Positions 12,701 through 40,255 of a DNA stretch of 64,000 nt are shown here, piece after piece (the stretch's first letter is position 1; every line of letters starts with the position of its first letter). Location: contig CAKPGD010000001.1 of NCBI GenBank assembly GCA_934154515.1, positions 2,809 to 66,808 of the forward strand, in the 5' to 3' direction. Below the pieces are notes generated by a model that saw nothing but the letters and a program-made list of their open reading frames with translations, did not search any database and was not told the DNA's origin. The position numbers and the translations under genes are program-made. The DNA is from an uncultured Clostridia bacterium. Lineage in GTDB: Bacteria; Bacillota; Clostridia; TANB77; CAG-508.

Positions 12701-15700
12701 TTACATTATTACTTCTATATCATATATTTTTCCATCGTCTATTAATTTTAGTTCCTTTTGTTCTATTTCTTGCCCGTTTACTTTAAATATTTCTACACCT
12801 GTATTTTTTTCGTCTGGATTTTTTACCTTTATATTATAAATTGTATCTTTATATTGGTAATGAATACTATACTCTTTCCATGTTTTGTCTATGCATGGTT
12901 GTATTTTTAATGTATTATTTTCTATTTTTAAACCTAATATATATTCTATTCCTGCTTTTAGCATCCAGCTTGCTGAACCAGTATACCATGTCCAACCGCC
13001 TCTTCCTGCTAAATTTTTGTGTCCATAAATATCTGCTGATATTACATATGGTTCTACCTTATATTTATTTGCTGATTCCATTGTTTTTGAGTGTTCTATT
13101 GGATTTATCATTCTAAATAGGTCTACTGCTTTATCTCCAAACCCTAACATTGCCTCTGCAATTATTGCCCATATTGCTCCATGTGTATATTGTCCTCCAT
13201 TTTCTCTAGTTCCTGGTAAATATGCTTTTATATAACCTGGCTCTAATTTGCTTTTTTCAAATGGTGGATCTAATAATTTTATTATTCCGTTTTCTCTGTC
13301 TATTAAATGGTTTTCTAAGCTTTCCATTGATATAAATTTTTTATCGTTATCTCCTGCTTTTGAAATTGTTGCCCAGCTTTGTGATATTCCATCTATTCTG
13401 CATTCTTCGTTTTGAAGACTTCCTAGTTCTTCGCCATCATCTGTGTATGCTCTTTTATACCATCTTCCATCCCATCCTGCTGTGTTTAATGCTTTTTTTA
13501 ATTTTTCTGTTGTTTGCTTATATCTAGCTATTGTTTCATTTAATTTTTGTTCTTGAGTAATAATTTCTTCTTTATTTGCTATTTCTTGTTGACTTTCTTG
13601 TTGACTTTCTTGTTGATTTTTCTGTTGATTTTCTTGTTGTTTCTCTTGTTGATTTTCTTGTCGTTTCTCTTGTTGTCTTTCTTGTTGCTCAATTATTTGC
13701 TGTTCTTTTTCTATTTTTTCTTTTTTAGCTTCCATTATTGGTATTAATTTGTTTAATACATCATAAAGGAAAAATCCTAGCCATACACTTTCACCTTTTC
13801 CTTTGTTTCCTACTGTACTCATGCTATCGTTCCAATCTCCTGAGCCCATTTTTGGAAGTCCATGTTCTCCAAAGTTCATTGATTTTTCTATTGCTCTTAT
13901 GCAGTGTTCATATATACTTTCTTTTATATTACTTTCTTCATATAAATCGTATCTTTCATCCACGCCTTCTTCTAGTATTGCTCCTTGTACATATGGTACT
14001 TGTATGTCTAATATTGTATAGTCTCCTGTCTGATTTATATATTCTGCTGTTAAATATACAAGCCATAATAAGTCATCTGAGAATCTTGTTCGTATTCCTT
14101 TTCTGTTTTCTTCATGCCACCAGTGTTCTACATCTCCTTCTATAAATTGATGGGCGGCATGCTTTATTATTTGTTTTTTCATGAATTCTGCATCTAAATA
14201 TTTTATTCCTAATGTGTCTTGAAGTTGGTCTCTATAACCGAATGCCCCTCCTGACTGATAAAATCCGCTTCTTCCCCATAATCTACATACTATTGCTTGA
14301 TATGCTAGCCATCCATTTAATAATATGTTAAATGATTCTACTGGTGTCTTTACTTGTAGCTTTCCTAGTAAGTTACTCCAATATTTTTTTACTTTATCTA
14401 ATTCATCTATGCAGTTTGATATTTTAGCAAACCTATAACTGTTATCTAAACTTGTTATTTTGTCTTCTTCCATTCCAAATATAAATGATATGTCCTTTGA
14501 TTCAAATGCTTCTAGTTCGACATTTATTTGAATTGCAATAACATTATCTATTCCTAGTGAATTTTCGTTGTTTAAACTTACTTTTCTTAATGCTTCTGGG
14601 TTGTTGAATGTTCCATTTCCTATAAAAAATTTCCTACTTCCTGTATATGATTCTATTTCTTCGCTGCATGAGACATAGGCATATTCGTTTTTATTTGATA
14701 TTTCATTTTTTACAAGAATTGTGTTTGAATTTTTTACAAATTCAAGGTTTATATATCCGTTTGAATTTATTTCGTCTTCTCCTAGCACTGGTTTTATATA
14801 ATATACTAGTTTTACTTTTTTTCTGTTTTGTGATAGATTTTTTAAGTTTAGTAGATTTATTTTTACATTGTTTTCGGTTGCTACAAATATGTTTAAATTT
14901 TGTGCTATTTCCATACTTGTATGACTGTATTTTGAGTATCCAAAACCATATGTTACTAAATAATCGTTGTTGTCTGGCATTGGGTTTAAACCTAATGACC
15001 ATGTTTTGCTTGTTGTTTCTTCTTTTAGATATATTACTTCTGAAGGATTATCTATTACTTGATTATTTGACCATGATGACATTCTATTTAATCTACTGTT
15101 TTTACTCCAAGTGAATCCTCCTTGTGCTTCTGTTACAAGTGTTCCAAAGTTACTGTTTGCCATAACATTACTCCATACTGTTGGAAGTCTTCTTTCTTTA
15201 TTTACTCTTATCAAATATTCTTTTCCATCTTTAGAAAATCCACCATATTCATTAAAATATTTTAAGTTTTCTGCTTCTAATAATGATGATGTTTTTTCTT
15301 CTTCTAATATTATTTTTTTAGGTACCTCATAGCCTATTTCTTTTAGTGTGTCTTCATATTCTTCTTCTATATCTTTTAATTGCCTTTCTAACGGTCCTTT
15401 ACTACTGTCTATTATTAGATTTGCTCTATATTCTAAAAGTTCTTTGCTTTCTAAGTCATCTATTATAAATATTCCTCCTCTTATATTTTGCATATAAGAT
15501 AGATTTTGATTTAATATTCCATTTATTATGCTTTCTTTTACATATCTTTCGTATTTGTTTTCTTCTTTGTCTAATATTACTAAATCTATATTTATGTTTT
15601 TTGACCTATAAAATTCGTATGCTTTTAGAATTTCTTCTAATATATATGTTTCGTTTACTTCTTGCATTTCTAATAGTACTATTGGAAGATCTCCTGAAAT

Positions 15701-18700
15701 TCCGTATTTCCATAAATTTTCTTGTGAATAGTCTTTTTCTGGTAATTTGTTTAAATATAGTTTCTTTAACGGATTTTGATATAATATATATCCTAGCATT
15801 TTTTGATAGTTTTCTATATCTTTATGCTTTATTTCTAAATATCTTGCTTCTGCTTCTACTCTAGCCTTTGATAGTTCAAAAGTTTTCTTTATTTTTTCTT
15901 CATTTGAATATTCTTTTACATTTTGTATAGCTGTTTTTCTTTCTTGTGATGCTGAAATTATTAAGCTTAGGTTTGATGTTTTTTCTGGTTCTATTTTTAT
16001 AGTTCTTTTTATTGCTACTATTGGATCTGTTACTAAATTTGTACTTTTTGAAAATGGTTTTGAGTTTTCTACCATTATTGGAAGATTTATATTTCCTCTA
16101 CCATAAAATTTTTCTTTATCTATTTCGTATTCTAGTTCTCCTATTGTTTCGTTATTAGTATACAATGTTACGGCCATATACATTTCTTTTTCTTCAGCTG
16201 TATGTTTTCTTCTTTTTACTACTAAAATATTTTCATCCTCTAAATATTCAAATGTTAGAAATAAATTGTTAAATGCAGGGTGCGCATAGTCTTGAATTGC
16301 TTTAGATAGTACTGGCTCTAAGCTTGTTGTTATTTCTAATGTTTCTTCTTCTAACCCATAATTTTTTAATTCTATATTTCTTATTTCTACCGCTTCTTCT
16401 GGAGCTACCGTTACTTTTAATTTTGTTTCTACAGACCCATCTAATCTTCTTATTTTGCTTACATCTTCGGAAAAACTTACTTCATATTTATCTGGTTTTG
16501 GCAAATAATTCATATAGTTTGATGTCCAAATTTTATTATTTCTAATATTTTTCAAATAAAATACTATTCCTTGTATTTCATCTGAAAGTGGTTTATATCT
16601 ATTTATTAAAACGTCATCTAGCCTGCTAAATCCATTTCCTTTTTGATCCATTACTATTAAATACTTATCATTTGCTATTGCATTTATTATATTTCGTTTT
16701 TCATTTATTTTATTAAATACTCTTGTTGCATTGCTTTCATAGTCCATATATTTTATTTTTTCTGGCTTTTTCTTTTCTTCTTTTGTTATTATCATGTCTT
16801 CTGGCATTTTTTCCTGTAATAGTATATCAACTGCTTCTATTTCCGGATTTTCGTTAAATCTTTTTACTAATATATCATCATTAAACAAGTTGTTTATTGA
16901 TAGTAATATTAAGGCTTGATGATGTGCCATATATGTTTTTACTACTTCATATTTTTTGCCTTTGCTTAAATTTCTTGGTGTAAAGTCTAAAGATTCATAA
17001 AAGCCGTATTTGCCATACATTTTATATTTTTCTAGTTCTTTAAAGTTTTCTATAACTTTATTTGGTATTTCTTTTAATGCTAATGCTGATGCATAGCTTG
17101 CAACTACTATGTCATCTTCTAGTCCTCTTTTTAATCCTAACCACGGAATTCCTATTGCTTTATATTGATAGTTATTGTTTAGGTCTTTTACATTAAATGC
17201 TGTTTCTGAAAATCCCCATGGTATTTCTAATTTTTTTGCATATTGCATTTGATTACTTATCATAAATTTACAAGATTCATCTAATAGGCTTCCTTTATAT
17301 TTTTTCATTATTATATTTGGCATTAGATATTCAAAAGCTGTTCCTGACCATGATATTAATCCTTTATATTCTCCAAGTACTGTTAGAGTTCTGTTTAAAT
17401 TATACCAATGTTTTTCTGGCACATCTTTTTTTGCTATTGCTACAAAGCTTGCTCCTCTTGCTTCTGAAGCTAATAAGTCATAATATGAATCTGTTAGTTT
17501 GTTTTCTTCTATATTAAACCCTATTGAAAATATATTTTTTTCTTTATCATATAGCTTACTAAAATCTGCATTTGCTATTGATATTTCATTTATTGGTTTA
17601 TTTACCCAGTTTGGAATTAGTTCTAGTAGTTTTTCATTTTTACCTATTTTTTCTATAATTTCTTTATAAAATTCTTTTAATACATATACATATTCTATAA
17701 AGTTTCCGCTATCTACTGTTGATATATACCTTGGTATTAATGGTTCTAACGTTTTTGTATTATACCAATTGTATAAATGCCCATTCCATTTTTGTAATTT
17801 TTCTATTGTTGTAAGCATTTTGTTTAAAAGTAATAATGTGTCTTCTAAATTTTCATAGCCCAGGTCATAACTTGCAATTACCGTTAGAAGTCCTAATCCT
17901 ATATTTGTAGATGATGTTCTTGAGACTATTTTTTCTGTTCTATCTTCTTGATAATTATCTGGTGGTAAAAAATTGTTTTTTTCGTTAATATTTTCTTTAA
18001 AGAATTTCCATGTTCTTCTTCCTATTTCAAGTAAGTATTCTTTATCTTCTTTAACTACTTTTTCTATTGCTTTTTCTTCTTTTTTTGTTTTACTTATATA
18101 GCACATAAATGCTGGTGTTATAAGCCAAAGTATAGCAAGTATTAATATTAATACGTTTTTTAATGCTAAAAAATATATTATACCCAATATTCCTAGAACT
18201 ACATTTGAAAACATATTTTTATAATAAGTTTTTAAATCTTGTTTGCTTAATTTTTCGCTTTCTTCTGATGTTATCCATTCTAGCAAGTGTTTATTGCTTA
18301 TTTTCATTCTGTATATACTTTTTATCATAGCATTTAAAGATGTATAGGCCTTGTCTGGTAATGTTGCTATTGCTATTACTCCTCTTATTATACTTGCTAA
18401 AAATGAATTTATTGTAGATTCAAATCTTTTTTGATATTTATTTCCTACTTTTCTAAATACTATTTTATTTATTATATCTATTATTGTTGGCATTATTATT
18501 GATATTATTGCGATTGCCATATATATTGAAGAATATTTTATTTTTAAACCCCTTGATATTGCGAAAATTATTATTAGTAAAACTGATGTAATAGGAAGGA
18601 TTTCTCTTATTAAATTATCTAATATCTTGTACCTACATAAAATATTTAATGGGTTTTTCTTTTTTATTTCTTTTCTATTTATGATGTTTTCTTTAGTCCA

Positions 18701-21061
18701 ATTATATATTTGAAAGTCTCCTCTTATCCATCTGTGTTGTCTTGTTTTATAGCTATTATAGCTTGAAGGATAACCATCCATTAATAGTATGTCTGTGGCA
18801 AGTCCACATCTCAAATAACTTCCTTCTAATAGGTCATGGCTTAGTACTGTGTTTTCTGGTATTTCATCTTTTAATACTTTTGAAAATACTTCTAAGTCAT
18901 AAATTCCTTTTCCAGTAAATATTCCTTCTTCGAAATTGTCTTGGTATATATCTGATATTGCATTCGTGTATGGATCTGTTCCTCCATTTCCTGCAAATAT
19001 TTTTGTAAATAGATTTTTTCTACTGCTTTCTATATTTATTCCTACTCTTGGTTGAATAAGTGCGTGCCCACTTATTACTACGTCTTCTTTTTTGCTTAAC
19101 TCTGGTTTGTTTAATATATGTGCCATCGCTCCTACTAGCTCTAGCCCTGTATTTAGAACTAATTCTGTATCACTATCTAGTGTTATTATATATTTTATTT
19201 TTTGTAATTCTTTTATATTGTTTTCTTTTTTCCATGTTTCTATCGTATTTTCTCTAAATATATTTTTTTCTTTTCCTAGTAAATAGTTGTTAAATTGATT
19301 TAATAAACCTCTTTTTCTTTCCCAACCTAAATAGCATTCTTCTTGTCCATTCCAAAATCTTTTACGATATATGAAGTTAAATTTTGGTAGGATTTTTTCT
19401 TGTTCTTCTTTATTATCGTATTTTTGATTTAATTCTTCTACTTCTTTTATTCCTTCTTCTATTACTTCTTCATCAAATTTTTCTTCTTTATTATTTCCTC
19501 CTGAACAGTCTCCTAATAGCGTAAAATATATATTTTCACTTTTATTTGCTAAATAATATACTTCTAGTTTTTTCATTAGTTCTTCTACTTTTTCTTTTGA
19601 TTTTAATATAGTTGGTATTACAACACAAGTAGCATATTCTTTAGGTATTCCATTATTTTTCATATCTAATTTTACTATCATTTTAGGTTTTACTATTTTT
19701 CCTAATATATATTGAACTATTTGTACAATTATTTCTTGTATTGGTATTAACGATAGTATAAAAAATACTACACTAAGTGTTATATTATTTATTGGTTTTG
19801 CTAATATTGCCCAGATTAGTGTATCTATAATTATTGTGCTTCCCCATATTCCATATATATAAATTTTTGATTTTGTTTGTGCTCTTATTTTTTTGCTTTC
19901 TTGCCCTGTTAATTCTTTTAAAAGTTCTTCTTTTCCATCATCTATTAAATAATACCCAACATGCTTACGTTTTTCTTTGTTTGTATTATTTTCTGATTCT
20001 AATTTGCTTTCTTTTTGTGCTAATTCTAATATTTTATTTGCAATATATATTTCAGATATTTTTGTTTTAGTAGATATTTCTTGGATTTTATTTCTATAAT
20101 ACTCTTTTGATTTATAATCCATTTTTTCATATATTTGTGCTGGATCTTTTTTTAATATTTCTTCTACTCCATTAATGCTTTGAAACACTTGCAAGAAATC
20201 CATTCTAAGTAACTCTTTTATACTTAAGATTGAATTTGCCATACTTACTTTTTTTACTGCTATGTCGAAATGTTCTTTTCTAATTACTTCTTCTGTTGTC
20301 GTTCCCATTTTGTTTACTTCTTCTTCAAGTATGTTTATATAGCTATATGCAGACTTTCCATATTTTTTTAGTCTATATGACATATACTCTATAAAAGGGT
20401 ATTTCATTTCTCCATACCCTTTTACTTTTTGTTTATAGTCTCCTAAATTTTTATATTTCAATTCTTGCTTGTTTTCTACTAGTCTTTCTATTATATTTTC
20501 TACTCTATATTTTTGCATTTGACTAAAATATATTTTTTCACAAATATCTCTTATATTTTGTATTAATGCTATTTGAATAAATAAGCCTATATTCCATATT
20601 TCGTCCATATTTAGACTCTTTTTTCTCTGATAACTATTAACTAATTCTCCTATTGTTTTTGAATCTATGGTGTTGTCTGTATAGGCTGTAATTTCTGTTG
20701 CTAGCACATATATTCTTGCAAATCCTTTATATACTCCATTTGATATTCCTAAAAATTTAACATATTTACTTAATGGCATTTGTTTTTCTACCATTTGAAT
20801 TGTTTCTTCTATTACATAAAAGTTGTCTAACAACCATTCTCCTGCTGGATGTATTGGAATTCCTAATTTTATGTGTTCATTTAGTAATTGATACACTTCT
20901 TCTATTGCTTCAAAATTTTCTTTCAGTTGTGGTATTGGATATGTTTCTTTGCTACTGTTTTGCTGTAATATATGATCTGATGCAATTTTTTCTAAATAGT
21001 TCTCTAATTGACCTTTTTCTAATACTGTTCCTTTTATATTTAATTTTTTATAATTTTTCAT
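12701..21061 (-). CDS. Giant membrane glycosyltransferase/glycoside phosphorylase fusion, cyclic beta-1,2-glucan synthase (Cgs/NdvB)-like (GT84 + GH94)
   Basis: The longest ORF is 2799 aa; the RBS-supported start is the internal Met at 21061 (AAGGGGTGG then 9 nt then ATG). About 6 TM helices flank a GT domain that carries a QxxRW-type motif (RQHRWIRGD). The C-terminal third matches the GH94 cellobiose-phosphorylase-like fold (GWLAYQ...RSGFYQSGGAFGYRDQLQD). Size and architecture match NdvB/Cgs (about 2800 aa). Confidence 0.75.
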   Translation of the reverse strand: MKNYKKLNIKGTVLEKGQLENYLEKIASDHILQQNSSKETYPIPQLKENFEAIEEVYQLLNEHIKLGIPIHPAGEWLLDNFYVIEETIQMVEKQMPLSKYVKFLGISNGVYKGFARIYVLATEITAYTDNTIDSKTIGELVNSYQRKKSLNMDEIWNIGLFIQIALIQNIRDICEKIYFSQMQKYRVENIIERLVENKQELKYKNLGDYKQKVKGYGEMKYPFIEYMSYRLKKYGKSAYSYINILEEEVNKMGTTTEEVIRKEHFDIAVKKVSMANSILSIKELLRMDFLQVFQSINGVEEILKKDPAQIYEKMDYKSKEYYRNKIQEISTKTKISEIYIANKILELAQKESKLESENNTNKEKRKHVGYYLIDDGKEELLKELTGQESKKIRAQTKSKIYIYGIWGSTIIIDTLIWAILAKPINNITLSVVFFILSLIPIQEIIVQIVQYILGKIVKPKMIVKLDMKNNGIPKEYATCVVIPTILKSKEKVEELMKKLEVYYLANKSENIYFTLLGDCSGGNNKEEKFDEEVIEEGIKEVEELNQKYDNKEEQEKILPKFNFIYRKRFWNGQEECYLGWERKRGLLNQFNNYLLGKEKNIFRENTIETWKKENNIKELQKIKYIITLDSDTELVLNTGLELVGAMAHILNKPELSKKEDVVISGHALIQPRVGINIESSRKNLFTKIFAGNGGTDPYTNAISDIYQDNFEEGIFTGKGIYDLEVFSKVLKDEIPENTVLSHDLLEGSYLRCGLATDILLMDGYPSSYNSYKTRQHRWIRGDFQIYNWTKENIINRKEIKKKNPLNILCRYKILDNLIREILPITSVLLIIIFAISRGLKIKYSSIYMAIAIISIIMPTIIDIINKIVFRKVGNKYQKRFESTINSFLASIIRGVIAIATLPDKAYTSLNAMIKSIYRMKISNKHLLEWITSEESEKLSKQDLKTYYKNMFSNVVLGILGIIYFLALKNVLILILAILWLITPAFMCYISKTKKEEKAIEKVVKEDKEYLLEIGRRTWKFFKENINEKNNFLPPDNYQEDRTEKIVSRTSSTNIGLGLLTVIASYDLGYENLEDTLLLLNKMLTTIEKLQKWNGHLYNWYNTKTLEPLIPRYISTVDSGNFIEYVYVLKEFYKEIIEKIGKNEKLLELIPNWVNKPINEISIANADFSKLYDKEKNIFSIGFNIEENKLTDSYYDLLASEARGASFVAIAKKDVPEKHWYNLNRTLTVLGEYKGLISWSGTAFEYLMPNIIMKKYKGSLLDESCKFMISNQMQYAKKLEIPWGFSETAFNVKDLNNNYQYKAIGIPWLGLKRGLEDDIVVASYASALALKEIPNKVIENFKELEKYKMYGKYGFYESLDFTPRNLSKGKKYEVVKTYMAHHQALILLSINNLFNDDILVKRFNENPEIEAVDILLQEKMPEDMIITKEEKKKPEKIKYMDYESNATRVFNKINEKRNIINAIANDKYLIVMDQKGNGFSRLDDVLINRYKPLSDEIQGIVFYLKNIRNNKIWTSNYMNYLPKPDKYEVSFSEDVSKIRRLDGSVETKLKVTVAPEEAVEIRNIELKNYGLEEETLEITTSLEPVLSKAIQDYAHPAFNNLFLTFEYLEDENILVVKRRKHTAEEKEMYMAVTLYTNNETIGELEYEIDKEKFYGRGNINLPIMVENSKPFSKSTNLVTDPIVAIKRTIKIEPEKTSNLSLIISASQERKTAIQNVKEYSNEEKIKKTFELSKARVEAEARYLEIKHKDIENYQKMLGYILYQNPLKKLYLNKLPEKDYSQENLWKYGISGDLPIVLLEMQEVNETYILEEILKAYEFYRSKNINIDLVILDKEENKYERYVKESIINGILNQNLSYMQNIRGGIFIIDDLESKELLEYRANLIIDSSKGPLERQLKDIEEEYEDTLKEIGYEVPKKIILEEEKTSSLLEAENLKYFNEYGGFSKDGKEYLIRVNKERRLPTVWSNVMANSNFGTLVTEAQGGFTWSKNSRLNRMSSWSNNQVIDNPSEVIYLKEETTSKTWSLGLNPMPDNNDYLVTYGFGYSKYSHTSMEIAQNLNIFVATENNVKINLLNLKNLSQNRKKVKLVYYIKPVLGEDEINSNGYINLEFVKNSNTILVKNEISNKNEYAYVSCSEEIESYTGSRKFFIGNGTFNNPEALRKVSLNNENSLGIDNVIAIQINVELEAFESKDISFIFGMEEDKITSLDNSYRFAKISNCIDELDKVKKYWSNLLGKLQVKTPVESFNILLNGWLAYQAIVCRLWGRSGFYQSGGAFGYRDQLQDTLGIKYLDAEFMKKQIIKHAAHQFIEGDVEHWWHEENRKGIRTRFSDDLLWLVYLTAEYINQTGDYTILDIQVPYVQGAILEEGVDERYDLYEESNIKESIYEHCIRAIEKSMNFGEHGLPKMGSGDWNDSMSTVGNKGKGESVWLGFFLYDVLNKLIPIMEAKKEKIEKEQQIIEQQERQQEKRQENQQEKQQENQQKNQQESQQESQQEIANKEEIITQEQKLNETIARYKQTTEKLKKALNTAGWDGRWYKRAYTDDGEELGSLQNEECRIDGISQSWATISKAGDNDKKFISMESLENHLIDRENGIIKLLDPPFEKSKLEPGYIKAYLPGTRENGGQYTHGAIWAIIAEAMLGFGDKAVDLFRMINPIEHSKTMESANKYKVEPYVISADIYGHKNLAGRGGWTWYTGSASWMLKAGIEYILGLKIENNTLKIQPCIDKTWKEYSIHYQYKDTIYNIKVKNPDEKNTGVEIFKVNGQEIEQKELKLIDDGKIYDIEVIM
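13580..13692 (-). repeat. In-frame 15-nt tandem repeat (about 7 units) encoding (QQE[N/S/K]Q)n inside the Cgs-like gene
   Basis: Direct repeats ttcttgttgaytttc on the plus strand. They translate as EQQERQQEKRQENQQEKQQENQQKNQQESQQESQQE. Confidence 0.8.
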
Positions 21062-21141
21062 AAAAATTTTTCCACCCCTTGGCATATGTTTTATACACAT
21101 ATTGTTTGCCAGTTGTGGAAAATTTATGCATTATTTTGTTT

Positions 21142-22194: not shown

Positions 22195-22219
22195 ATTATT
22201 TTCCTCCTATTGCTAGATT

Positions 22220-24025
22220 TTATTGTGGTAATACTATATTAAATGTTGTACCAACTCCTACTTTAGATTTAAAGTTTATGTCTCCATTGAAGTGTCCTTT
22301 TATTGTTGAGTATGACATAAATAATCCTAGTCCTGTTCCATTATGTCCTTTTGTTGTAATCATTTCATTAAACAATTTTTTCTGTATTTCTTCTGGTATT
22401 CCACTTCCGTGGTCTATTACAGATATTATTATATTATTTTTTTCTTTATCTATAACTAAATCTATAACTTGGTCTGGTTTTCCGCCATATGATTGTATTG
22501 CATTTGATATTAAGTTATTAACTACTTGTACTAAACTGTTGATGTTTCCTATTATTTTAGTATGATCTTCTACTTTTTTAACTACATTTAATTTTATAAA
22601 TGCATTTTTTAATTCATGTTTCATTAATATATTAACTCTATTTAGTAGCTCTTCTACTTCAAATATCATTGTAGCATCTTCTGTCATATTAACTGCTTGA
22701 CCTTTTACAGCAGTTATGATGTCTGACATATATGAATCATATGAGTTTACTTTATTTACCCATTCTAGCATATCTTTTGCTATTGCTTGGTGGTCTTCTT
22801 TTGTAACATCTGGGTCATTTATAGATTTTTGATATTCTGTTATTAAATCTGTAAGTCCTTCCATTGCACCAGAAATTGACATTATTGGTGTTTTTAAGTT
22901 GTGTGCTATTCCACCTATCATTTGTCCTAATGAAGCAAGTCTCTCACGTTCCATTAATATGTCTTGATTTTGTTTTAAAACCTCCATGTCAAGTATATGT
23001 TGTGTTGTATCTTTAAATAGTATTAGCGTTCCTACATATTTTCTTTCTTTATAAATTCCTGTTATTTCTATATTGAAATATTTATTTTGTTTCTTTAATA
23101 TAGCTTCTGCTATATGTAGTTTTTCGTCATGTTTTATTGTTTTAAAATATTCTCCTAGCTTTTTCTTTTTTACTGTAATGCTTTTGGAAATTTCTATTTC
23201 TTCAAATTGTTTTCCTATTAATTTCTTTCTATCTATTTTAAATATTTTTTCAAATGTTTTATTACAGTTTGTTATAATTTCATCTTTGCTTAATACAACA
23301 TATGCATCTGAAATCTGGTCAACTATTGTTTTTAATGCTATTGGAGCAACGTCTAAGAAATCATATCTAAATATTGCAATAGCAAAACATAAGAATGTTG
23401 TCATGAATGAGATTGGTGTTATATATATGTTCATATCAAATACTGTCATTCCTAATATATTTACTATTAGCGGTACTAATGCACCTATTGCCATTAGTAT
23501 AAATTGTTTAGAAACTCCTTTTGAATCCTTCATAGAATTTTTTAATAGAATTATAATATCTATTATGAATAATCCATATGTATATACAGAATGGACATAG
23601 AAATATGGTCCAAATACTGTAGTTTCAGGATTTACAGAATATACTTTATAAAACAAATTGTGAAATTTATTTGTCCATAATACCAGCATTGTTGTTACTG
23701 GTATTATAAACAATAATAATTGGCTTTTCTTGTATTTCTTGTCTTCTGATAAGTTATACGCTATGAAGAATAATATTACTGGCATAAATACAACAAATAT
23801 GTATATAAAGTATTCTGGGTATATAGGGCTAATTGTTGGCACATAATTTATGATTAAAATTTGAGCTATTAGACCTACACACCAAAACATCATAGAATAC
23901 AACAAATAGTTAAATGTTGTTTTTAATTTTGAGTTCGTTGTCTTTTTCTTATTTATGTAAAAAATTGTTATAGCCTCTATTATGATTGTTATTAGCAATC
24001 CAATAAAGAATTCAAAGTATTTCAT
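22220..24025 (-). CDS. Sensor histidine kinase with N-terminal 7TM sensor domain, PAS-like region, HisKA and HATPase_c
   Basis: 601 aa. About 7 N-terminal TM helices. H-box LASLGQMIGGIAHNLKTP. C-terminal N/G boxes (NLISNAIQ...DHGSGIP...GTGLGL). Preceded by a GGAGGA RBS. Confidence 0.85.
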   Translation of the reverse strand: MKYFEFFIGLLITIIIEAITIFYINKKKTTNSKLKTTFNYLLYSMMFWCVGLIAQILIINYVPTISPIYPEYFIYIFVVFMPVILFFIAYNLSEDKKYKKSQLLLFIIPVTTMLVLWTNKFHNLFYKVYSVNPETTVFGPYFYVHSVYTYGLFIIDIIILLKNSMKDSKGVSKQFILMAIGALVPLIVNILGMTVFDMNIYITPISFMTTFLCFAIAIFRYDFLDVAPIALKTIVDQISDAYVVLSKDEIITNCNKTFEKIFKIDRKKLIGKQFEEIEISKSITVKKKKLGEYFKTIKHDEKLHIAEAILKKQNKYFNIEITGIYKERKYVGTLILFKDTTQHILDMEVLKQNQDILMERERLASLGQMIGGIAHNLKTPIMSISGAMEGLTDLITEYQKSINDPDVTKEDHQAIAKDMLEWVNKVNSYDSYMSDIITAVKGQAVNMTEDATMIFEVEELLNRVNILMKHELKNAFIKLNVVKKVEDHTKIIGNINSLVQVVNNLISNAIQSYGGKPDQVIDLVIDKEKNNIIISVIDHGSGIPEEIQKKLFNEMITTKGHNGTGLGLFMSYSTIKGHFNGDINFKSKVGVGTTFNIVLPQ

Positions 24026-24047
24026 TTTATCCTCCTAGTTTCTTAAT

Positions 24048-27000
24048 TTATAAATTTTCTAGTACTTTTCTTATGTATTCTATATCAATTTCTGGCCAGT
24101 CAAATCCAGCTTCTTTAAAAAATTTAAGTGTATTTTTATTTGAAATTACTAAATTTGTTTTATATACGAAGTTATCATCTTTGTCTAAGTCATTTACCAA
24201 TACATTTACATTATTAGTTCTTGACTCGTCATATAGCCATTTTTTTAGTTTCTTTTTAAATACATAATCTTCTACTATTTTTATGTCTATTTTTAATTGT
24301 TTTAATATTTCATATAATTCTTTTATATAAATGTGTTTTGAATTATATAAGTGCATTATTGATATTGGGAAATTATAGTATTCCATACATACTATAATAG
24401 CTTCTGCTATTTTATCAACTGGACTAAATTCTGCGTAATTTTCCATTATTGATTTTGGAATCATTCCTAATGCTAAAAATGCTTTTAATCTATTTAAAAA
24501 TGCATTATCTTCACTATTTTCTTGGAATTTACCATCTGAATATCTATTAGTTATATTTCCTATTCTTAGTATTATTCCTTTTAGTCTTTTACTTGCTAAT
24601 TCTTCTAAAATTAATTTTTCTGCTTCAAATTTACTTCTAACATATACGTTTTCTAGTGTTTGATTTACAAATAGTTTATCTTCTCCATATTCAATTACTT
24701 CGTCTGGTCTGAAGCTATTTGCTAATCCTACCATTGTATTTCCAGATACACTTACTGTTGAAGTTTGTATGAATTCTTTATTGAATTTTTCACAAAATTC
24801 TATAATGTTTTTTACACCTGTTACATTTATTTTTTCGAATACATTGTAATCTCCATAGTGTTTTACTAATGCAGCACAGTTTATAACTTGTTCTACATTT
24901 TCTCCTAATTGATTATATTGCTCTTCTGAAAGTCCATAATTTTTGTAAGTAATATCTCCGTCTATTACAAATATTCTTGTTCCTAATAAATTACTTAAAT
25001 CACTTCCAAAGTAATATTTGAATTTATTTCTTAATTTGTTTTCTGGTGATGTACTTGGGTCTTTTCTAATTAAACAATATATTTTTATAGAATCTATTTT
25101 TAATAATTCTGCTAATACATGAATTCCTAAGAATCCTGTTGCACCTACTAAAAGCACATTTTGTATTTTTCTTGGTCTTACTCTTATTTTATTTTCTTCT
25201 GCATTTTTCTTTATAAAGTTATTTATTTTTTCAAAGTCTTTTTCTGTATATTGTGGGTATAAAGCTTCTTCTTTGTTTTCTTCTAAGAATTTTGCTAATT
25301 CTCTAATTGTGTTATTCTTAAATATGTCTCCATAGTTAATGTTATACCCTATCTTCATAATTTCTAGTTGTAGTTTTAATGCGCATAAAGAGTCTCCGCC
25401 TATATCAAAGAAATTATCATCTATACTTATTTTTTCTAGCGAAAGGATTTCTTCCCATATTTTTACTAATTTTCTCTCTAATTCTGTTTCTGGTGCAATT
25501 ATTTCTTTTTCCTTTATTATTGGTAAAGGTAGTTCTTTTCTATCTATTTTTCCGTTTGGTGTATATTTAAAGTCTTCTAATTGTACTAGGTATGATGGAA
25601 CCATATAATTTGGTAAACTCATAGATAGTCTATTTTTTAAATTAGATATAGATACTCTACCTGTTGCTACAAAATATCCACATAAGATATCTCTTCCATT
25701 TACATTTTTTACAGCTACTACACTTGATGAAACTCCTTTATATGCACATATAGCATTTTCTATTTCTCCAAGTTCGATTCTTAGTCCTCTTATTTTTACT
25801 TGGAAATCGTTTCTTCCTAAACAGTCTATTTCTCCATTTGGAAGTACTTTTACTAAGTCTCCTGAATTATATATTCTGGAATTATTATATTCTATATATC
25901 TTTCTGATGTAAGTTCTGGTTTGTTTATATATCCTATTGAAACTCCGTCTCCTCCTATGAATAATGTTCCTATTACACCTTGTGGAACTTGATTCATATC
26001 ATTATCTAATACATATATTTCTGTATTTGCTATCGGTGTTCCTATTGTTATTTTTTTATTTAATGAAGTTATTTCTTTTAATGTTGAGCCAACTGTTGTT
26101 TCTGTTGGTCCATACATATTAAATACTTGTGCATCTGTTATATTTCTAATCTTTTTGAATAAGTCAAGTGTAAATGGTTCTCCTGCAAGTGATATTATTT
26201 TCATTTTTTGGATATATTCTATTGCTGTGTTTTCTGACATTAGTAGCTTAAATTTTGAAGGTGTTGTTTGTATTACTTCAACATTATTTTTTAAGCATAA
26301 TTCATTTAAAAGTATTGGGTTGTTTTGCTCTTCATTATTTGCTAAAACAACTTTCATTCCTGTACATAATGGTAATAAGCTTTCTAATACAAATATATCA
26401 AAACACATTGTGGTGATATTTACTATTGTTTTATCTTTTAGTGGCATTCTATCACACATTCCATAAATGAAGTTTACTACGCTTGATTGTTTTAATATAA
26501 CTCCTTTTGGTCTTCCTGTTGAGCCTGATGTATATATCATATATGAAACATCTGAAGATTTTGTATCTGTATCAAATGGTTTATATTCATCATAAGAATT
26601 TTCATCATCTACACATAAAGAGTCTACTTCTATTCTATCTTCGTAATTTTTTTCTGTAAGAACTAGTCCTACTTCACTATCTTCTAGAATATATTTTACT
26701 CTATCAACAGGGTATTTTGGATCGATTGGTAAATATCCTGCCCCCGCTTTTAAAATTGCAAACATAGAAACTATAAGTTCTGCTCTTCTGTCCATCATAA
26801 TTCCTATTACTTTATATTTCTTTTTAGAAATATTATTTTTATATGCTGGCATATTTATAATATGGTTTGCTAGTTTATTTACTTTTGTTTCTAATTCTTT
26901 ATAAGTATATTTCTCGTCTCCAAATACAAGTGCTATTTTGTCTGGTGTTTCTAATACTTGTTTTTCAAATAAATCTATTATTCTAAGTTCTTTTGAATAT

Positions 27001-30000
27001 TCCAAAGTTGGATACATTTTTGGAATTTCTGTAAGTATTTTTATCTTAGAAATTTGTGTTTCTGGTTCTTCTATAATACTGTTTACTATATTTTTGTAGC
27101 AGTCTAAGAATGTGCTCATAAAGTTTTTACCAAATAATTTTGTACAGTATTCTAGTCTTATATTATATGATTCTTGTGTTGGTGTTATTTCAAGTGATAT
27201 GTCAAACTTAGATGTTTTGTTTTCTGGTATAACATATGTACTGCTTAACCCGTTTAGGTCTAATTTTGGTAGTCCTTCACTCTCATATATAAACATCGTA
27301 TCAAATACAGGATTTCTACTATTATCTCTTGCTATATTTAAGTTTTTAACTAGTTCATCAAATGGATATGTTTGATGTTCAAATGCATTCATACAATTAT
27401 TTTTTACTTGATTTAGAAAGTCTATTGCCGTGCTTGAAGATTGTATATTTTGTTTTAGTGCGATTGTATTAACAAACATTCCAACTATATCTGAAAGTTC
27501 TGCATTGTTTCTTCCTACTGTTGGTGTTCCTACTACTATTTCATTTTGCATTGTGTATTTATAAAGAAGAATATAATAGCTTGAAAGTAAGAACATATAT
27601 GGTGTAATTCCTTTACTTTTACAGAATTCATTTATTTTATCTACATTTTCTAGTTTTTCAAATATGCTTTCTCCTTCTTCTGATTTTATACTAGCTCTTT
27701 CAAATTCAGTTGGCATATTTAATAAAGGCACTCCATTTTCAAAAGTAGATAACCAATATTCTTTATCTTTTTCTTCTATTTTTTCTGATATTGCATAATC
27801 TATATAATCAATTTTATTTTCTTTTAGTTCTTTTTCGTTATATAAGTCACACAATTCTTTTGCAAATATTCCTATTGATGTTCCATCACAGATTATATGA
27901 TGCATATCCATTTGTAATAATGCTTTTCCGTCAAACTTATCTAACTCAATATGCATTAAAGGTGCTTTTCCTAAGTCAAATGGTTTTACAAAGTCTTCAT
28001 TTTTGCTGTTTGATACCTTTAATTTAAAGTCTATTTTTTCTACCACTTTTTGAACAACATCTGTATCTTTTAACTCAAAATATGTTCTAAAAGCTTCATG
28101 TCTGTTTATTATTGTTCCTATTGCATTTTCTAATTTTTTTACATCTGGTACTTTGTCGAAAAGTATTCCAAATGGTGTATTATATGCTAATGACTCTTCT
28201 TGCATACTTGCAGTATAGTATATTCTTCTTTGTGCTGAAGATACTGGATAATATTCTGCTTTTTCATGTTTTTTTATTTTTTCTGTTTTCTCTTCTGTTA
28301 CTTCTTTTGTATCAATAAATTCTGACAATTCCTTAATTGTTGGATATTCGAAAATGTCTTTTACTTCTATTTTTACTTTTAAATCATTATATATTTCTGA
28401 AACTAACATTATAGAGCATAGTGAGTCTCCACCTAAATCGAAGAAATTTGCTAATGTACTTATTTTGTTTAGTTTTAAAACTTTTTTCCAGATTTTTTCT
28501 ACTTTTTTCTCTGTGTCTGTTTCGCTTTTTATAAATTCTTTATCTTCTACTATTATTTCTGGCAAATTTTTGCTATCTACCTTTCCATTTGCAGTTATAG
28601 GTAGGTGGTCCATAAATACTATGTGAGATGGTACCATATAGTTTGGTAATTCTTTTGCAAGTGCTTTTTTTAATGTTTTTTCTGTTAATTCACTGTCTGT
28701 TGTCTCTATGTATGCACATATACTGTCTATATCATTTACTTTTTTTATTACTGTTATGGCATTTTTTATATCTTCTAATTTTATTATTTTTTCTGTTATT
28801 TCGTCTAATTCAATTCTTAGTCCATGTAATTTTATTTGATTATCTTTTCTTCCATAATAAACTAGTTCTCCGTTTTTATTTAGCTTTGCGATGTCTCCTG
28901 TTCTATATACCCCATTAAATCTTTGTTTATTTACATATCCTAAACCTACTCCATCTCCTGTTATTACAAGTTCCCCTGGTATATCTATTGGTAGTATATT
29001 TTCATCTTTGTTCATTATATACATTTTTACATTTAAGTATGGAGTTCCTATTGTTATATCATTTTCATCTATAACGTGTTTATTTGAAGCACATGCACAT
29101 GTCTCTGAAGGTCCATAGCCATTATGTATTTCTGCATTTGTTGCTTTTCTTAATTCTTTATATAGACTTGGCTTAAATACTTCTCCACCTAATTGAATTA
29201 CTTTTACATCTCTTAAACATTCATTTTCATTTAATAATAATGATATTTTTGATGGTGTAGATACTATGAAATCTATATTATTTTCTATTATTAATTTACT
29301 TGTAAATGCTGGTATTTTTTGTTCATCTTCATCTGCAAGTATTACTGTTTTTCCTGATAATATTGAAAGAAAATTTTCAACTACAAACATATCAAATGAA
29401 ACAGTACTTGTACTTAAATAGTTCTCACAAATATTAGTATGTAATATTTTTTTGAAGCTGTTTACTAAATTTATAACACTTAGTCTTCTTAATTCAACAC
29501 CTTTTGGCATACCTGTTGAACCAGAAGTATATAATACACAAAATCTATCTTCATTTGAGCTTTTTACTTTTGGTTGTTTATTACTATAATTTTCTAAGTT
29601 TGTTATATCAACTGTTTCGTAATTCATATATAAGTTTGTAATTACTATTGGACATTTTGCATTTGTTAACATATAGTTTACTCTATCTTCTGGAAGATTT
29701 GGGTCTATTAGCATATATGCTGCTCCCGTTTTTAATACTCCCCACATTGCTATATGTAAATCTAATGACCTATTTAGCATTATTCCTACTACATCATCTT
29801 TTTTTATTTGTTTGCTTAATAATATATTAGCAACTTGATTTGATTTTTCATCTAACTCGCCATATGTTAATGTTTTATCTTTAAATTTTGCACATATTTT
29901 ATTTTTATTTTTTCTTACTTGTTTTTCAAAAACTTCTACTATTGTTTGTTTTTTATTATATTTATATTCTGTTGCATTAAATTTATTTATTATAGATTTT

Positions 30001-31319
30001 TCTTCTTTTGTTATAACTTCTATATTTTTTATTACTGGATTTTTTAAAACACTTTTTGCCATATTTATTATTCTTTTGTGTAAGTTTTCTATATCTTCTT
30101 TTGTAAATTTGCTTGTTTGATAATTATAAAATATATTCACTTTTCCTGTGTTGTCCATATCGTAAAAATGTACTTCAACAGGATTTGCAACATTAGAGTT
30201 TGGTACCCAGCCTGATTCATAATCTATATCACTTGTTTTTTTGTTATCTCTTGCATTTTGGTAAGATAATACAAAATCATATAAATTTTCAGACATATCA
30301 AATTTTTCTTTAATGTCTTTTAATAGTTCTAAATATGGATATTTTTGATGCCTATATATTGCTGTTTGATTTAATTCTACTTGTTTTAAAAATTTTGAAA
30401 ATTCTAAATTAGAATTTATATCCATTTTAAAAGGTACATTGCTTACAAACATTCCTATTATTTGTTTTTCATTAAAATTTCTTCTGTTAAGTACTGGAGT
30501 TCCTATTATCGCTGATTTTGTATCATTTATTTTTGCAAGATAAATTAGGTATATCGCCATAAAAAATGTATATACTGAGCAATTATTTTCTTTACTAAAG
30601 CTAGCAATTTTTTCATATAAATTTTTATCTATTTCAAAAGACTCTCTGCTTCCTTCGCAACTATTTATATCTTTTCCACTTGCTTTTTTATCTTTATAGA
30701 TATGTGTAATTACTGGTTCCTTTTCGAAAACTTCATTCCAAAAAGTTCTATCATTTTTAATTTTTGTACTTTGCATATATTTTTGAGAATCTATTATATA
30801 TTGTTCATATTTTGTATAATCTTCGAAGGCATAATTACTTTTTACTAGCATAGAATATATTTCCATTAGTCTAGAAACAAGTAATCCCATTGACCAAGCA
30901 TCACAAATTAAATGGTGAAATACTCCAATTATTCCACCCGTTCCATTTGGATACTTAAAAAGTGTAAATTTGAATAAATTTGAATTAATCATTTTAAAAG
31001 GCGCTTTTAACAAGCGAGAGCACAATTTATTTGTTTCTTCTATATTTTTTGTTTCAATTATTTCTGTTTTAAATTTTTTATATGTTGACACGTGCTGTAC
31101 TGCTTCATCATCTTTTATTTCAAATTGGAATCTCATACTATCTGTATGTTCTACAAATATGTTTGCTGTCTTTTCTAGTAGCTCAAAGTCTACTTTTTCT
31201 TTTATGTATATATAACCACATATATTGTTAACACTCGTATTTGAATAAAACATTTCTGTGTTCCATATGTTTTTTTGTTGATTTGTTAAGTTTAAGGTAT
31301 TTTCCATATTATCCAACAT
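24048..31319 (-). CDS. Dimodular nonribosomal peptide synthetase, C-A-T-C-A-T-R (terminal thioester reductase)
   Basis: Longest ORF 2439 aa; probable start at Met17 (31319) or Met21 (31307). Two HHxxxDG condensation motifs (HHLICDAWS, MHHIICDGTS). Two adenylation domains (YTSGSTGMPKGV/NGYGPSETCA/YRTGD/GRKDNQIKLHGLRIEL and YTSGSTGRPKGV/NMYGPTETTV/YNSGD/GRNDFQVKIRGLRIEL). Two PCP motifs (FFDLGGDSL, FFDIGGDSL). C-terminal NAD(P)-binding reductase (VLLVGATGFLG...YVRSK). Confidence 0.9.
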   Translation of the reverse strand: MLDNMENTLNLTNQQKNIWNTEMFYSNTSVNNICGYIYIKEKVDFELLEKTANIFVEHTDSMRFQFEIKDDEAVQHVSTYKKFKTEIIETKNIEETNKLCSRLLKAPFKMINSNLFKFTLFKYPNGTGGIIGVFHHLICDAWSMGLLVSRLMEIYSMLVKSNYAFEDYTKYEQYIIDSQKYMQSTKIKNDRTFWNEVFEKEPVITHIYKDKKASGKDINSCEGSRESFEIDKNLYEKIASFSKENNCSVYTFFMAIYLIYLAKINDTKSAIIGTPVLNRRNFNEKQIIGMFVSNVPFKMDINSNLEFSKFLKQVELNQTAIYRHQKYPYLELLKDIKEKFDMSENLYDFVLSYQNARDNKKTSDIDYESGWVPNSNVANPVEVHFYDMDNTGKVNIFYNYQTSKFTKEDIENLHKRIINMAKSVLKNPVIKNIEVITKEEKSIINKFNATEYKYNKKQTIVEVFEKQVRKNKNKICAKFKDKTLTYGELDEKSNQVANILLSKQIKKDDVVGIMLNRSLDLHIAMWGVLKTGAAYMLIDPNLPEDRVNYMLTNAKCPIVITNLYMNYETVDITNLENYSNKQPKVKSSNEDRFCVLYTSGSTGMPKGVELRRLSVINLVNSFKKILHTNICENYLSTSTVSFDMFVVENFLSILSGKTVILADEDEQKIPAFTSKLIIENNIDFIVSTPSKISLLLNENECLRDVKVIQLGGEVFKPSLYKELRKATNAEIHNGYGPSETCACASNKHVIDENDITIGTPYLNVKMYIMNKDENILPIDIPGELVITGDGVGLGYVNKQRFNGVYRTGDIAKLNKNGELVYYGRKDNQIKLHGLRIELDEITEKIIKLEDIKNAITVIKKVNDIDSICAYIETTDSELTEKTLKKALAKELPNYMVPSHIVFMDHLPITANGKVDSKNLPEIIVEDKEFIKSETDTEKKVEKIWKKVLKLNKISTLANFFDLGGDSLCSIMLVSEIYNDLKVKIEVKDIFEYPTIKELSEFIDTKEVTEEKTEKIKKHEKAEYYPVSSAQRRIYYTASMQEESLAYNTPFGILFDKVPDVKKLENAIGTIINRHEAFRTYFELKDTDVVQKVVEKIDFKLKVSNSKNEDFVKPFDLGKAPLMHIELDKFDGKALLQMDMHHIICDGTSIGIFAKELCDLYNEKELKENKIDYIDYAISEKIEEKDKEYWLSTFENGVPLLNMPTEFERASIKSEEGESIFEKLENVDKINEFCKSKGITPYMFLLSSYYILLYKYTMQNEIVVGTPTVGRNNAELSDIVGMFVNTIALKQNIQSSSTAIDFLNQVKNNCMNAFEHQTYPFDELVKNLNIARDNSRNPVFDTMFIYESEGLPKLDLNGLSSTYVIPENKTSKFDISLEITPTQESYNIRLEYCTKLFGKNFMSTFLDCYKNIVNSIIEEPETQISKIKILTEIPKMYPTLEYSKELRIIDLFEKQVLETPDKIALVFGDEKYTYKELETKVNKLANHIINMPAYKNNISKKKYKVIGIMMDRRAELIVSMFAILKAGAGYLPIDPKYPVDRVKYILEDSEVGLVLTEKNYEDRIEVDSLCVDDENSYDEYKPFDTDTKSSDVSYMIYTSGSTGRPKGVILKQSSVVNFIYGMCDRMPLKDKTIVNITTMCFDIFVLESLLPLCTGMKVVLANNEEQNNPILLNELCLKNNVEVIQTTPSKFKLLMSENTAIEYIQKMKIISLAGEPFTLDLFKKIRNITDAQVFNMYGPTETTVGSTLKEITSLNKKITIGTPIANTEIYVLDNDMNQVPQGVIGTLFIGGDGVSIGYINKPELTSERYIEYNNSRIYNSGDLVKVLPNGEIDCLGRNDFQVKIRGLRIELGEIENAICAYKGVSSSVVAVKNVNGRDILCGYFVATGRVSISNLKNRLSMSLPNYMVPSYLVQLEDFKYTPNGKIDRKELPLPIIKEKEIIAPETELERKLVKIWEEILSLEKISIDDNFFDIGGDSLCALKLQLEIMKIGYNINYGDIFKNNTIRELAKFLEENKEEALYPQYTEKDFEKINNFIKKNAEENKIRVRPRKIQNVLLVGATGFLGIHVLAELLKIDSIKIYCLIRKDPSTSPENKLRNKFKYYFGSDLSNLLGTRIFVIDGDITYKNYGLSEEQYNQLGENVEQVINCAALVKHYGDYNVFEKINVTGVKNIIEFCEKFNKEFIQTSTVSVSGNTMVGLANSFRPDEVIEYGEDKLFVNQTLENVYVRSKFEAEKLILEELASKRLKGIILRIGNITNRYSDGKFQENSEDNAFLNRLKAFLALGMIPKSIMENYAEFSPVDKIAEAIIVCMEYYNFPISIMHLYNSKHIYIKELYEILKQLKIDIKIVEDYVFKKKLKKWLYDESRTNNVNVLVNDLDKDDNFVYKTNLVISNKNTLKFFKEAGFDWPEIDIEYIRKVLENL

Positions 31320-31335
31320 CCTTTCATATACGGTT

Positions 31336-31364
31336 ATTATACAAAATTCTACAAATAAATGCAA
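31336..31364 (-). promoter_or_regulatory. SigmaA-type promoter of the NRPS operon: -35 TTGCAT, 17-bp spacer, extended -10 TGtATAAT
   Basis: Read on the minus strand. It lies inside the 5' end of the longest predicted NRPS ORF, and an AAGG RBS and in-frame Met codons follow downstream. Confidence 0.5.
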
Positions 31365-31461
31365 CATTTAAAGGAAAATATGTAAATTTATTTTTATACC
31401 TTTTTATCTACTTTTTTTATTTAATTTTTTACCTAAATTTTTATTCAATTTTACACTTTTT

Positions 31462-33164: not shown

Positions 33165-33307
33165 ATTCTTTTGTTCCTTTCTCATGTAAGATTTATTTTT
33201 TATTAACTTTTTATCTCTGGTCTTTTTTATCTTATTTCGCTTTTTTTAGCTTATTATTTTTATTATTCTTATTTTGCTGTTTTTACTTTTTTCTTACTTT
33301 TATTTTT

Positions 33308-40236: not shown

Positions 40237-40255
40237 AATATTTATACCCCCTTCA

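Follow-up and report, generated by a model that had tools for sequence, protein, structure and literature searches.

The stretch of DNA analysed here, referred to below as the window, is 64,000 nucleotides (nt) long and comes from contig CAKPGD010000001.1 of an uncultured Clostridia bacterium (assembly GCA_934154515.1). At positions 12,701 to 31,367 of the window four genes follow one another on the minus strand, encoding in the order in which they are read a non-ribosomal peptide synthetase (NRPS), a sensor histidine kinase, a response regulator with REC and HD-GYP domains, and a giant protein resembling cyclic-glucan synthase (Cgs). An earlier reading made from the letters alone, here called the sequence-only reading, had proposed them as one transcription unit in which a small-molecule signal might be coupled through cyclic di-GMP (c-di-GMP) to glucan production. 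The locus is interpreted here, with somewhat better than even confidence, as a composite: a three-gene signalling cassette (NRPS, kinase and regulator) and an older cgs gene, beside which the cassette was inserted in this species. The genes are as follows.

24048 to 31307, minus strand: bimodular NRPS of 2419 amino acids (aa), domain order C-A-T-C-A-T-R (condensation, adenylation, thiolation and terminal reductase domains), from Pfam domains
22220 to 24025, minus strand: sensor histidine kinase of 601 aa, HisKA_7TM-PAS-HisKA-HATPase, from Pfam
21142 to 22194, minus strand: response regulator of 350 aa, REC plus HD-GYP (HD/HD_5), from Pfam
12701 to 21061, minus strand: Cgs-like protein of 2786 aa, from PF10091, two GH94 regions and structure-sequence matches

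The open reading frames (ORFs) as called by the scan are 24048-31367, 22220-24025, 21142-22194 and 12701-21100, all on the minus strand. Translation most probably begins at ATG 31307 in the NRPS gene and at ATG 21061 in cgs, so that the gene for which 2799 aa had been given stands but its product shortens to 2786 aa; products of exactly 2419, 2786, 601 and 350 aa are all present in the public protein collection. A Shine-Dalgarno sequence precedes each of the four genes, and the gaps are 22 nt between NRPS and kinase, 25 nt between kinase and regulator and 41 nt between regulator and cgs (80 nt when measured to ATG 21061). In these respects, and in the domain assignments, with which Pfam agrees, the earlier description is borne out. 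The window has a G+C content of 27% with negative GC skew throughout, and its minus strand holds 33 of the 36 gene-sized ORFs (92%), so the shared direction of the four genes is uninformative. The median gap between same-strand neighbours is 106 nt, and 23% of such gaps do not exceed 25 nt; against this background the first two junctions look operon-like and the 80-nt junction before cgs looks ordinary.

The three signalling genes keep together elsewhere, and they do so without cgs. A survey anchored on the regulator yielded 31 loci from species-representative genomes of uncultured gut Clostridia, with regulators 62-83% identical. In 29 of the 31 the gene directly upstream of the regulator is the kinase, the exceptions being a regulator on its own (locus L022) and a regulator at a contig edge (L029). 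Wherever the place of the NRPS could be judged (28 loci), it precedes the kinase. Cgs is next to the cassette in none of the 31, nor is it at either of the two loci with the nearest non-conspecific regulators (83% and 85% identical), where the trio is again present. What lies downstream of the regulator elsewhere are convergent housekeeping genes, either Tex, ABC-F and CorA or ABC-F with an Mbeg1-like gene. The kinase is split into ORFs of 404 and about 270 aa in three loci (L020, L025 and L026). The trio is a real cassette that recurs widely in this clade, and it does not include Cgs.

The converse survey, anchored on Cgs, gave 85 loci with Cgs proteins 48-73% identical, and an HD-GYP regulator or an NRPS lies within 10 kb of cgs in none of them. 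The upstream partner that does recur is a gene for a small amidase of the Amidase_3 family, found within 1.5 kb upstream of cgs in 29 of the 80 loci with enough upstream DNA. It is directly upstream in L001, L006, L007 and L041, lies within about 1.1 kb in L003-L005, where two small ORFs intervene, and is directly upstream of the closest Cgs outside the species (73% identity). In the window the same amidase gene stands on the far side of the cassette. The features that frame the insertion are these.

31462 to 32028, minus strand: Amidase_3 gene (N-acetylmuramoyl-L-alanine amidase), bordering the insertion on the left and, ancestrally, the gene next upstream of cgs
21059 to 21128 (region to 21141), minus strand: cgs leader hairpin and, after it, a U-run reaching to the AUG, from folding and conservation
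32232 to 33185, minus strand: REC-GGDEF-like protein with the motif GGDDF, a context gene outside the cassette, conserved near the amidase-cgs pair in closer relatives

Two of the relatives without the cassette (L006 and L007) share the wider order of the window: a Big-like gene, CmpB (L007 only), REC-GGDEF, amidase, cgs and an ORF of 308 aa (L006 only), with three small additional ORFs between REC-GGDEF and amidase in L007. At the other edge, about 70 nt before cgs are homologous to the corresponding DNA of cassette-less relatives, and this homology begins about 13 nt past the stop codon of the regulator. The order amidase, NRPS, kinase, regulator, Cgs occurs on nine contigs of the same species from independent samples and assemblers, and is therefore not an assembly artefact. 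A cassette of about 10.3 kb has thus been inserted between the amidase gene and the ancestral leader of cgs, where it was found in this species alone.

Similar AT-rich 12-13-mers flank the cassette, TGAATAAAAATTT at 31447-31435 and TGCATAAATTTT at 21130-21119 (both minus strand), and both resemble the conserved motif that marks the leader's 5′ edge. They may represent a duplicated target (a 13-nt target-site duplication was considered) or a recombination site, but the resemblance is statistically non-significant in DNA so rich in AT: chance alone predicts 0.85 occurrences of the degenerate pattern, and two or more matches turned up in 21 of 100 shuffles. Domain annotation shows no mobile-element gene beside the cassette in the window. 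In two conspecific loci (L043 and L044, positions 1-153) a large serine recombinase with Resolvase, Recombinase and Zn_ribbon_recom domains lies just upstream of the amidase, and another large serine recombinase (L126, 16135-17673) lies, with an AAA_14/DUF4143 gene, near the ancestral locus of the cassette. Mobile DNA is active around both the amidase-cgs locus and the ancestral cassette locus.

These surveys bear most heavily on the proposal that all four genes form one operon, in which the NRPS product or some other signal acts on the kinase, the HD-GYP protein lowers c-di-GMP and Cgs, hence glucan, is thereby controlled. The gaps are short, a minus-strand scan from 24300 to 11300 turned up no canonical terminator, and the arrangement is stable over the nine contigs of the species. 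However, outside the species Cgs stands at 0 of 33 cassette loci and the cassette at 0 of 85 Cgs loci, so that of the proposed unit the NRPS-kinase-regulator part is conserved and the Cgs part is not; homologues of all four had been expected to occur together in related genomes, and Cgs and the cassette never do so outside the species. There is, nevertheless, a hint of some c-di-GMP link to the region, in that a REC-GGDEF-like gene is conserved beside cgs: it lies 1-3 kb upstream of amidase-cgs in L006, L007 and about 16 metagenome Cgs loci. It is this gene, rather than the HD-GYP regulator, that is the conserved c-di-GMP-related neighbour of cgs, but its GGDDF motif is non-canonical and its phospho-acceptor region doubtful. 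Cgs itself has no Pfam hit to a PilZ, GIL or MshEN-type c-di-GMP receptor domain, nor any other Pfam-detectable c-di-GMP-binding domain, and Rfam finds no c-di-GMP riboswitch; in the window and in four cassette loci the only RNA families it reports are tRNAs. In this the protein differs from the BcsA-PilZ type of c-di-GMP-gated exopolysaccharide synthase. Moreover, cgs retains its ancestral leader, with a terminator-like hairpin that would sequester the Shine-Dalgarno sequence. The four-gene operon as proposed is improbable.

The Cgs protein is, from its domains, a predicted synthase of cyclic beta-1,2-glucan, with the glycosyltransferase, cyclization and GH94 domains all recognisable. It matches the Agrobacterium tumefaciens enzyme, for which there is a cryo-electron microscopy structure (8rf9; PMC10834661), collinearly over the whole length (1514 bits). 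Residues 47-996 align to residues 44-965 of 8rf9 (E = 6e-131), the membrane glycosyltransferase region; the cyclization domain in the middle (GH189, GH144-like) matches the structure 8wy1 from T. italicus (E = 7.5e-134), with PF10091 at residues 1206-1419; and the C-terminal GH94 region is hit by PF06165 (E = 4.6e-103) and PF17167 (E = 5.2e-118), GH94 structures matching residues 1938-2767. The three regions are thus shared with characterised Cgs proteins. The differences are that the host of the window is a low-G+C gut Firmicute, that the gene has a conserved leader hairpin of the Shine-Dalgarno-sequestering kind, and that many relatives of the gene are frameshifted or split into two to four ORFs. 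Such splits (L001, L003-L007, L041; P0002-P0010) give pieces of, for instance, 1046+1652, 1390+912+172+230 or 756+1702+114 aa. In L003 the frame is shifted by one base at a place that is not a homopolymer, and nine contigs show the identical split product. The conspecific loci L043 and L044 carry a C-terminally truncated Cgs of 2615 aa, followed in L043 by an AAA_14/DUF4143 gene (L044 ends at that point). This suggests that Cgs is decaying, or functionally split, in this clade.

The statement that there are no hairpins between the genes holds for the NRPS-kinase and kinase-regulator gaps, which are unstructured on folding, and not for the gap before cgs, which folds at −24.1 kcal/mol (z = −5.1; 0 of 200 shuffles fold equally well) into a hairpin with a U-run. 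In it UUUUCCAC pairs with the Shine-Dalgarno sequence GGGGUGGAAAA, and the start codon is also within the pairing. The leader of about 70 nt is kept in about 47 of 65 unique cgs leaders and stands 5′ of cgs in L001, L003, L006, L007, L041 and about 40 of the loci L046-L125. Its elements come in a fixed order: an invariant GNATA at the 5′ edge (window 21129-21125), a hairpin 5′ arm UUCCAC[UCUU] paired to the Shine-Dalgarno sequence (AAGGAGUGGAA), an inner stem (ATATGT/ACATAT) whose loop is conserved, and a U-run into the start codon, which in relatives is often TTG. RNAalifold on a MAFFT alignment of the leaders returned no structure, because insertions and deletions shift the two arms out of register, and the structure was assessed instead by folding each sequence and by scoring a structure defined by hand. 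The 38 unique versions folded have a median minimum free energy of −20.2 kcal/mol and a median z of −6.8, and 82% of cells in the hand-defined structure are paired, versus about 46% when the partners are slid. Compensatory support is weak (five pairs changed on both sides versus 2.4 in shuffles, a value reached in 14 of 500). The leader, which matches no Rfam family, likely forms an RNA structure. It could serve for translational control by sequestering the Shine-Dalgarno sequence, as a terminator or attenuator for upstream transcripts, or as a terminator overlapping a cgs promoter. Two candidate promoter readings of the leader were tried: a sigma-A promoter (TCCACA-18-TATAAA, or TTGCAA with a downstream −10) is a poor match, and a sigma-F/G-like one (GHATR, 20 nt, CAATATG) has the wrong spacing.

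The insertion may have created a new operon, with transcripts of the cassette reading into cgs as an accidental, species-specific rewiring that may since have been put to use. Two related cassettes (L008 and L009, with regulators 83% and 78% identical) have a clean intrinsic terminator behind the regulator gene, and the window copy has none; only about 13 nt separate its regulator stop codon from the conserved leader. Terminators are claimed for L008 and L009 alone because only there was the DNA folded explicitly; a home-made detector run downstream of regulator genes proved too strict and missed the clear terminator of L008. In L001 the hairpin is the entire spacer between amidase and cgs. 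Transcription of cgs there probably starts further upstream, and it is this upstream position that the cassette occupies in the window. On the other side, the leader hairpin and its U-run could themselves terminate transcripts arriving from upstream, and the invariant GNATA and the AATAT motif could be a retained promoter of cgs. Read-through into cgs is accordingly a serious candidate, though one given slightly less than an even chance.

Promoter predictions do little to settle transcription in DNA of such low G+C content. The sequence-only reading placed a consensus-like sigma-A promoter solely before the NRPS. The element concerned is:

31364 to 31336, minus strand: promoter-like TTGCAT-17 nt-TATAAT upstream of the NRPS, inside the ORF called from 31367 and under the −35 threshold of the scan

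A similar pair, TTGCCT-17-TATAAT, is at the corresponding place in L008. Promoter-like hexamer pairs occur in the window at or below the numbers expected from shuffling (73 versus 85.6 expected, and 70 versus 77.4), several of them inside genes. Because they occur at chance density, the claim that the NRPS alone has a promoter cannot be upheld.

Within the cassette the three proteins have the motifs needed for activity. The catalytic motifs of the NRPS are intact, with HHxxxD at 131 and 1136, GGDSL at 959 and 1970, GATGFLG at 2055 and YVRSK at 2222. Its best NCBIfam match is AusA (1563 bits, residues 377-2414), and since this falls short of the equivalog cut-off of 2500 bits it is not an AusA orthologue. 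It does have the A-T-C-A-T-R order with a terminal NAD-dependent reductase, to which an N-terminal C domain is added, and from the domain order alone the product would be an (N-acyl) dipeptide aldehyde or a pyrazinone. The kinase has about seven transmembrane (TM) helices, then a PAS domain, a dimerization and phosphotransfer (DHp) helix with the phospho-acceptor H375 (H-box HNLKTP) and a catalytic domain with intact N, G1 and G2 boxes. It is non-hybrid: 7TM, PAS, HisKA and HATPase are all that Pfam detects, REC and HPt domains being absent. In the regulator the HD-GYP motifs HDIGK and HHERFDGRGYP are intact, and the REC domain has its acidic pocket and a conserved Asp, in an LLLLD motif, at the expected phospho-acceptor position. 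The best solved relatives are V-cGAP3 (5z7c) and PmGH (4mcw), and because the best of these is V-cGAP3, cyclic GMP-AMP (cGAMP) is a possible substrate. The search with the regulator also returned a 517-aa protein (P0145) with an additional HDOD-type domain (PF08668), scoring slightly over P0012, a cluster representative whose identity with the query is 100%; P0145 may be a regulator variant that has been fused or lengthened.

The feature that gives the cassette its interest is that its two ends evolve differently. Over 26 complete loci the median pairwise identity is 74% for the regulator and 69% for the kinase core, and it is 28% for the kinase sensor, 31% for the PAS region and 34% for the last NRPS module. 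Identity of the sensor follows that of the NRPS closely (r = 0.95; partial correlation given the regulator, 0.947), the value for regulator versus NRPS being 0.31. Individual pairs make the point. Between L023 and L025 the regulators are 99% identical and the flanking and downstream DNA 95-100%, with NRPSs at 34% and sensors at 29%, one NRPS being bimodular and the other monomodular. L030 and L037 are 97% identical in the HtrA-like gene of the left flank and 97% in the regulator, and 36% in the NRPS. Among the 99 pairs with regulators at least 85% identical and NRPSs less than 50% identical, 98 have their maximum-likelihood break in identity within kinase residues 310-353, just before the DHp helix with H375; identity is 21% to the left of the break and 79% to the right. 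The hypervariable sensor half is thus residues 1 to about 350.

Clustering at 45% identity puts sensors and NRPSs into the same seven groups, which cut across the regulator clusters. Two sensor architectures are found. One, of 7TM plus PAS (about 600 aa), is always accompanied by a bimodular C-A-T-C-A-T-R NRPS; the other, with 5TM, about 120 aa and a further TM (660-690 aa), is always accompanied by a monomodular C-A-T-R NRPS. Pocket residues of the adenylation domains are alike within a type and different between types (an approximate comparison, made against a GrsA reference sequence). NRPS and sensor have been exchanged jointly against a conserved kinase core and regulator (70-99% identical), and this joint variation fits a kinase that would sense the product of the NRPS beside it. 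Monomodular cassettes are usually accompanied by a divergent gene for an AMP-binding ligase. In the monomodular subgroup L028-L038 a co-directional gene for a DUF975 membrane protein also follows the regulator (e.g. L030, 11074-12012), and may be a fourth cassette gene there.

The mechanism that these observations suggest is as follows. The NRPS would make a small, probably N-acylated, dipeptide aldehyde or pyrazinone, which would leave the cell and be detected by the cognate 7-TM sensor. The kinase would then phosphorylate the REC domain and so switch the HD-GYP phosphodiesterase, changing the level of a cyclic dinucleotide (c-di-GMP, possibly cGAMP). Such a circuit would resemble quorum sensing, existing in many specificity types. 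The step on which it turns, detection of the NRPS product by the kinase, is put at an even chance or slightly better. The fuller picture, in which the trio of the gut Clostridia is polymorphic, pherotype-like quorum sensing (NRPS signal, cognate kinase and HD-GYP output) that happens here to be wired before cgs, is held tentatively.

Against it can be set a reading in which the kinase and regulator respond to an external cue from the host, the diet or a competitor, and the co-variation of NRPS and sensor is hitch-hiking in a hypervariable island. Homologous recombination can resolve only where the DNA is conserved, to the left in the HtrA-like gene and to the right in the kinase core. An exchange of the NRPS must therefore end in the kinase core, and the sensor could be inherited with the NRPS through linkage without any functional tie; physical linkage by itself would make the two co-cluster. 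Products of related gut NRPSs are reported to inhibit host proteases and not to act as signals. A review confirms of the products in gut Clostridia only that they are dipeptide aldehydes (PMC12327764). Linkage leaves unexplained, however, why there is any replacement of the sensor half between loci whose regulators are as much as 99% identical, why the two sensor architectures match mono- and bimodular NRPSs without exception, and why NRPS and kinase are adjacent in nearly all loci. An external cue is, on balance, rather unlikely.

Several further points weigh against signalling by the NRPS product and against the cassette as a unit. The survey of the trio was confined to this clade, and the locus pairs compared for identity are phylogenetically non-independent. 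In L022 (4338-5453) an HD-GYP regulator has neither kinase nor NRPS upstream, and in L036, in a circular metagenome-assembled genome (MAG), the regulator (10001-11057) is frameshifted into pieces of 277 and 89 aa. Domain annotation shows neither a phosphopantetheinyl transferase nor an exporter encoded in the cassette or the window. It also shows no DNA-binding domain in the regulator, so that no autoinduction loop is evident.

The closest functional analogy is the Rpf/DSF (diffusible signal factor) system of Xanthomonas, in which RpfF is a synthase of the crotonase family, RpfC a hybrid sensor kinase with REC and HPt domains, and RpfG a REC-HD-GYP regulator. Common to both are the clustering of a small-molecule synthase with a polytopic-membrane kinase and a REC-HD-GYP protein, an output by c-di-GMP hydrolysis and not DNA binding, and, beside monomodular cassettes, an AMP-binding ligase like RpfB. 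The cassette differs in that its synthase is an NRPS, its kinase is non-hybrid, its hosts are Firmicutes and it has many exchangeable specificity types. By analogy it may function like Rpf, yet it is not a member of the Rpf/DSF family. The pattern of variation recalls instead the agr loci of Staphylococcus and Clostridia and the com loci, where the signal is a processed ribosomal peptide and, in agr-type loci, the regulator is a LytTR transcription factor. There too the signal genes and the sensor half are one hypervariable, exchanged block, the kinase core and regulator are conserved, and identity breaks at the junction of sensor and kinase. The signal of the cassette would be non-ribosomal, however, its regulator is an HD-GYP enzyme and not LytTR, and an autoinduction promoter is not evident; polymorphic in the manner of agr and com, it lacks the ribosomal peptide and LytTR protein that define them.

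NRPSs that also make signals provide a third comparison. PvfC is a reductase-terminated NRPS that gives pyrazine-type molecules. The cluster around it, Pvf (Pseudomonas virulence factor), makes extracellular autoinducers, whose receptor is unidentified there and not cluster-encoded (PMC10194917). An NRPS-made extracellular signal would be common to both, the cassette differing in encoding a candidate receptor and an output enzyme beside the NRPS. Reductase-terminated NRPSs for dipeptide aldehydes are a family of gut Clostridia (Guo et al. 2017), ruminopeptin being an example (Schneider & Balskus 2018; both via the review PMC12327764). With these and with AusA of S. aureus the cassette NRPS shares the A-T-C-A-T-R core and terminal reductase, and with the former the gut habitat; it differs in its additional N-terminal C domain and in its score (1563 bits, below 2500). 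In the part of the literature covered, no paper linking an NRPS to a dedicated histidine kinase or HD-GYP regulator was found, and the NRPS-kinase-HD-GYP cassette is apparently undescribed.

The surroundings are those of a housekeeping stretch of chromosome, with genes for SpoIIE, MreBCD, PBP2, MinC, RadC, PcrA, RF1 and TatD, and the nearest public relatives of the window are uncultured gut Clostridia, e.g. Clostridium sp. CAG:793, CAG:354 and a circular 1.57-Mb MAG. Downstream of cgs lies the right flank:

11625 to 12551, minus strand: conserved ORF of 308 aa, its own transcription unit

This ORF has no Pfam or NCBIfam match. It is headed by a perfect TTGACA-17-TATAAT at 12612-12584 (minus strand), and a homologue 47% identical is downstream of cgs in L006. 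Further off, upstream of the Big-like/CmpB/REC-GGDEF block, is a pair of giant ORFs of 1636 and 1666 aa (35326-45256, minus strand) with SdrD_B, DUF11 and CarboxypepD_reg domains, judged by these to be probably surface proteins; homologues of 26-49% identity are found in the vicinity of Cgs loci as well as of cassette loci.

A four-gene coupling system, as it had been framed, is not supported, and the link between Cgs and the cassette is at most a recent read-through, a possibility rated a little below even. In a compact and strand-biased genome short gaps and a shared orientation do not define a system, and here they conceal the recent arrival of the cassette by insertion. Apart from this, the hairpin of the cgs leader is a candidate cis-regulatory element in a gene family otherwise known from host-associated Proteobacteria. 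If the kinase does sense the NRPS product, the peptide-aldehyde NRPS family, which is abundant in the gut and has so far been discussed as a source of host-protease inhibitors, would gain a second role, in signalling between bacterial cells. As receptor and output enzyme are encoded beside the NRPS, each step would, unlike in Pvf, be directly testable. The exchangeable types of NRPS plus sensor would imply strain-level "dialects" in uncultured gut Clostridia of small genome, and would offer natural matched pairs of ligand and receptor for work on specificity.

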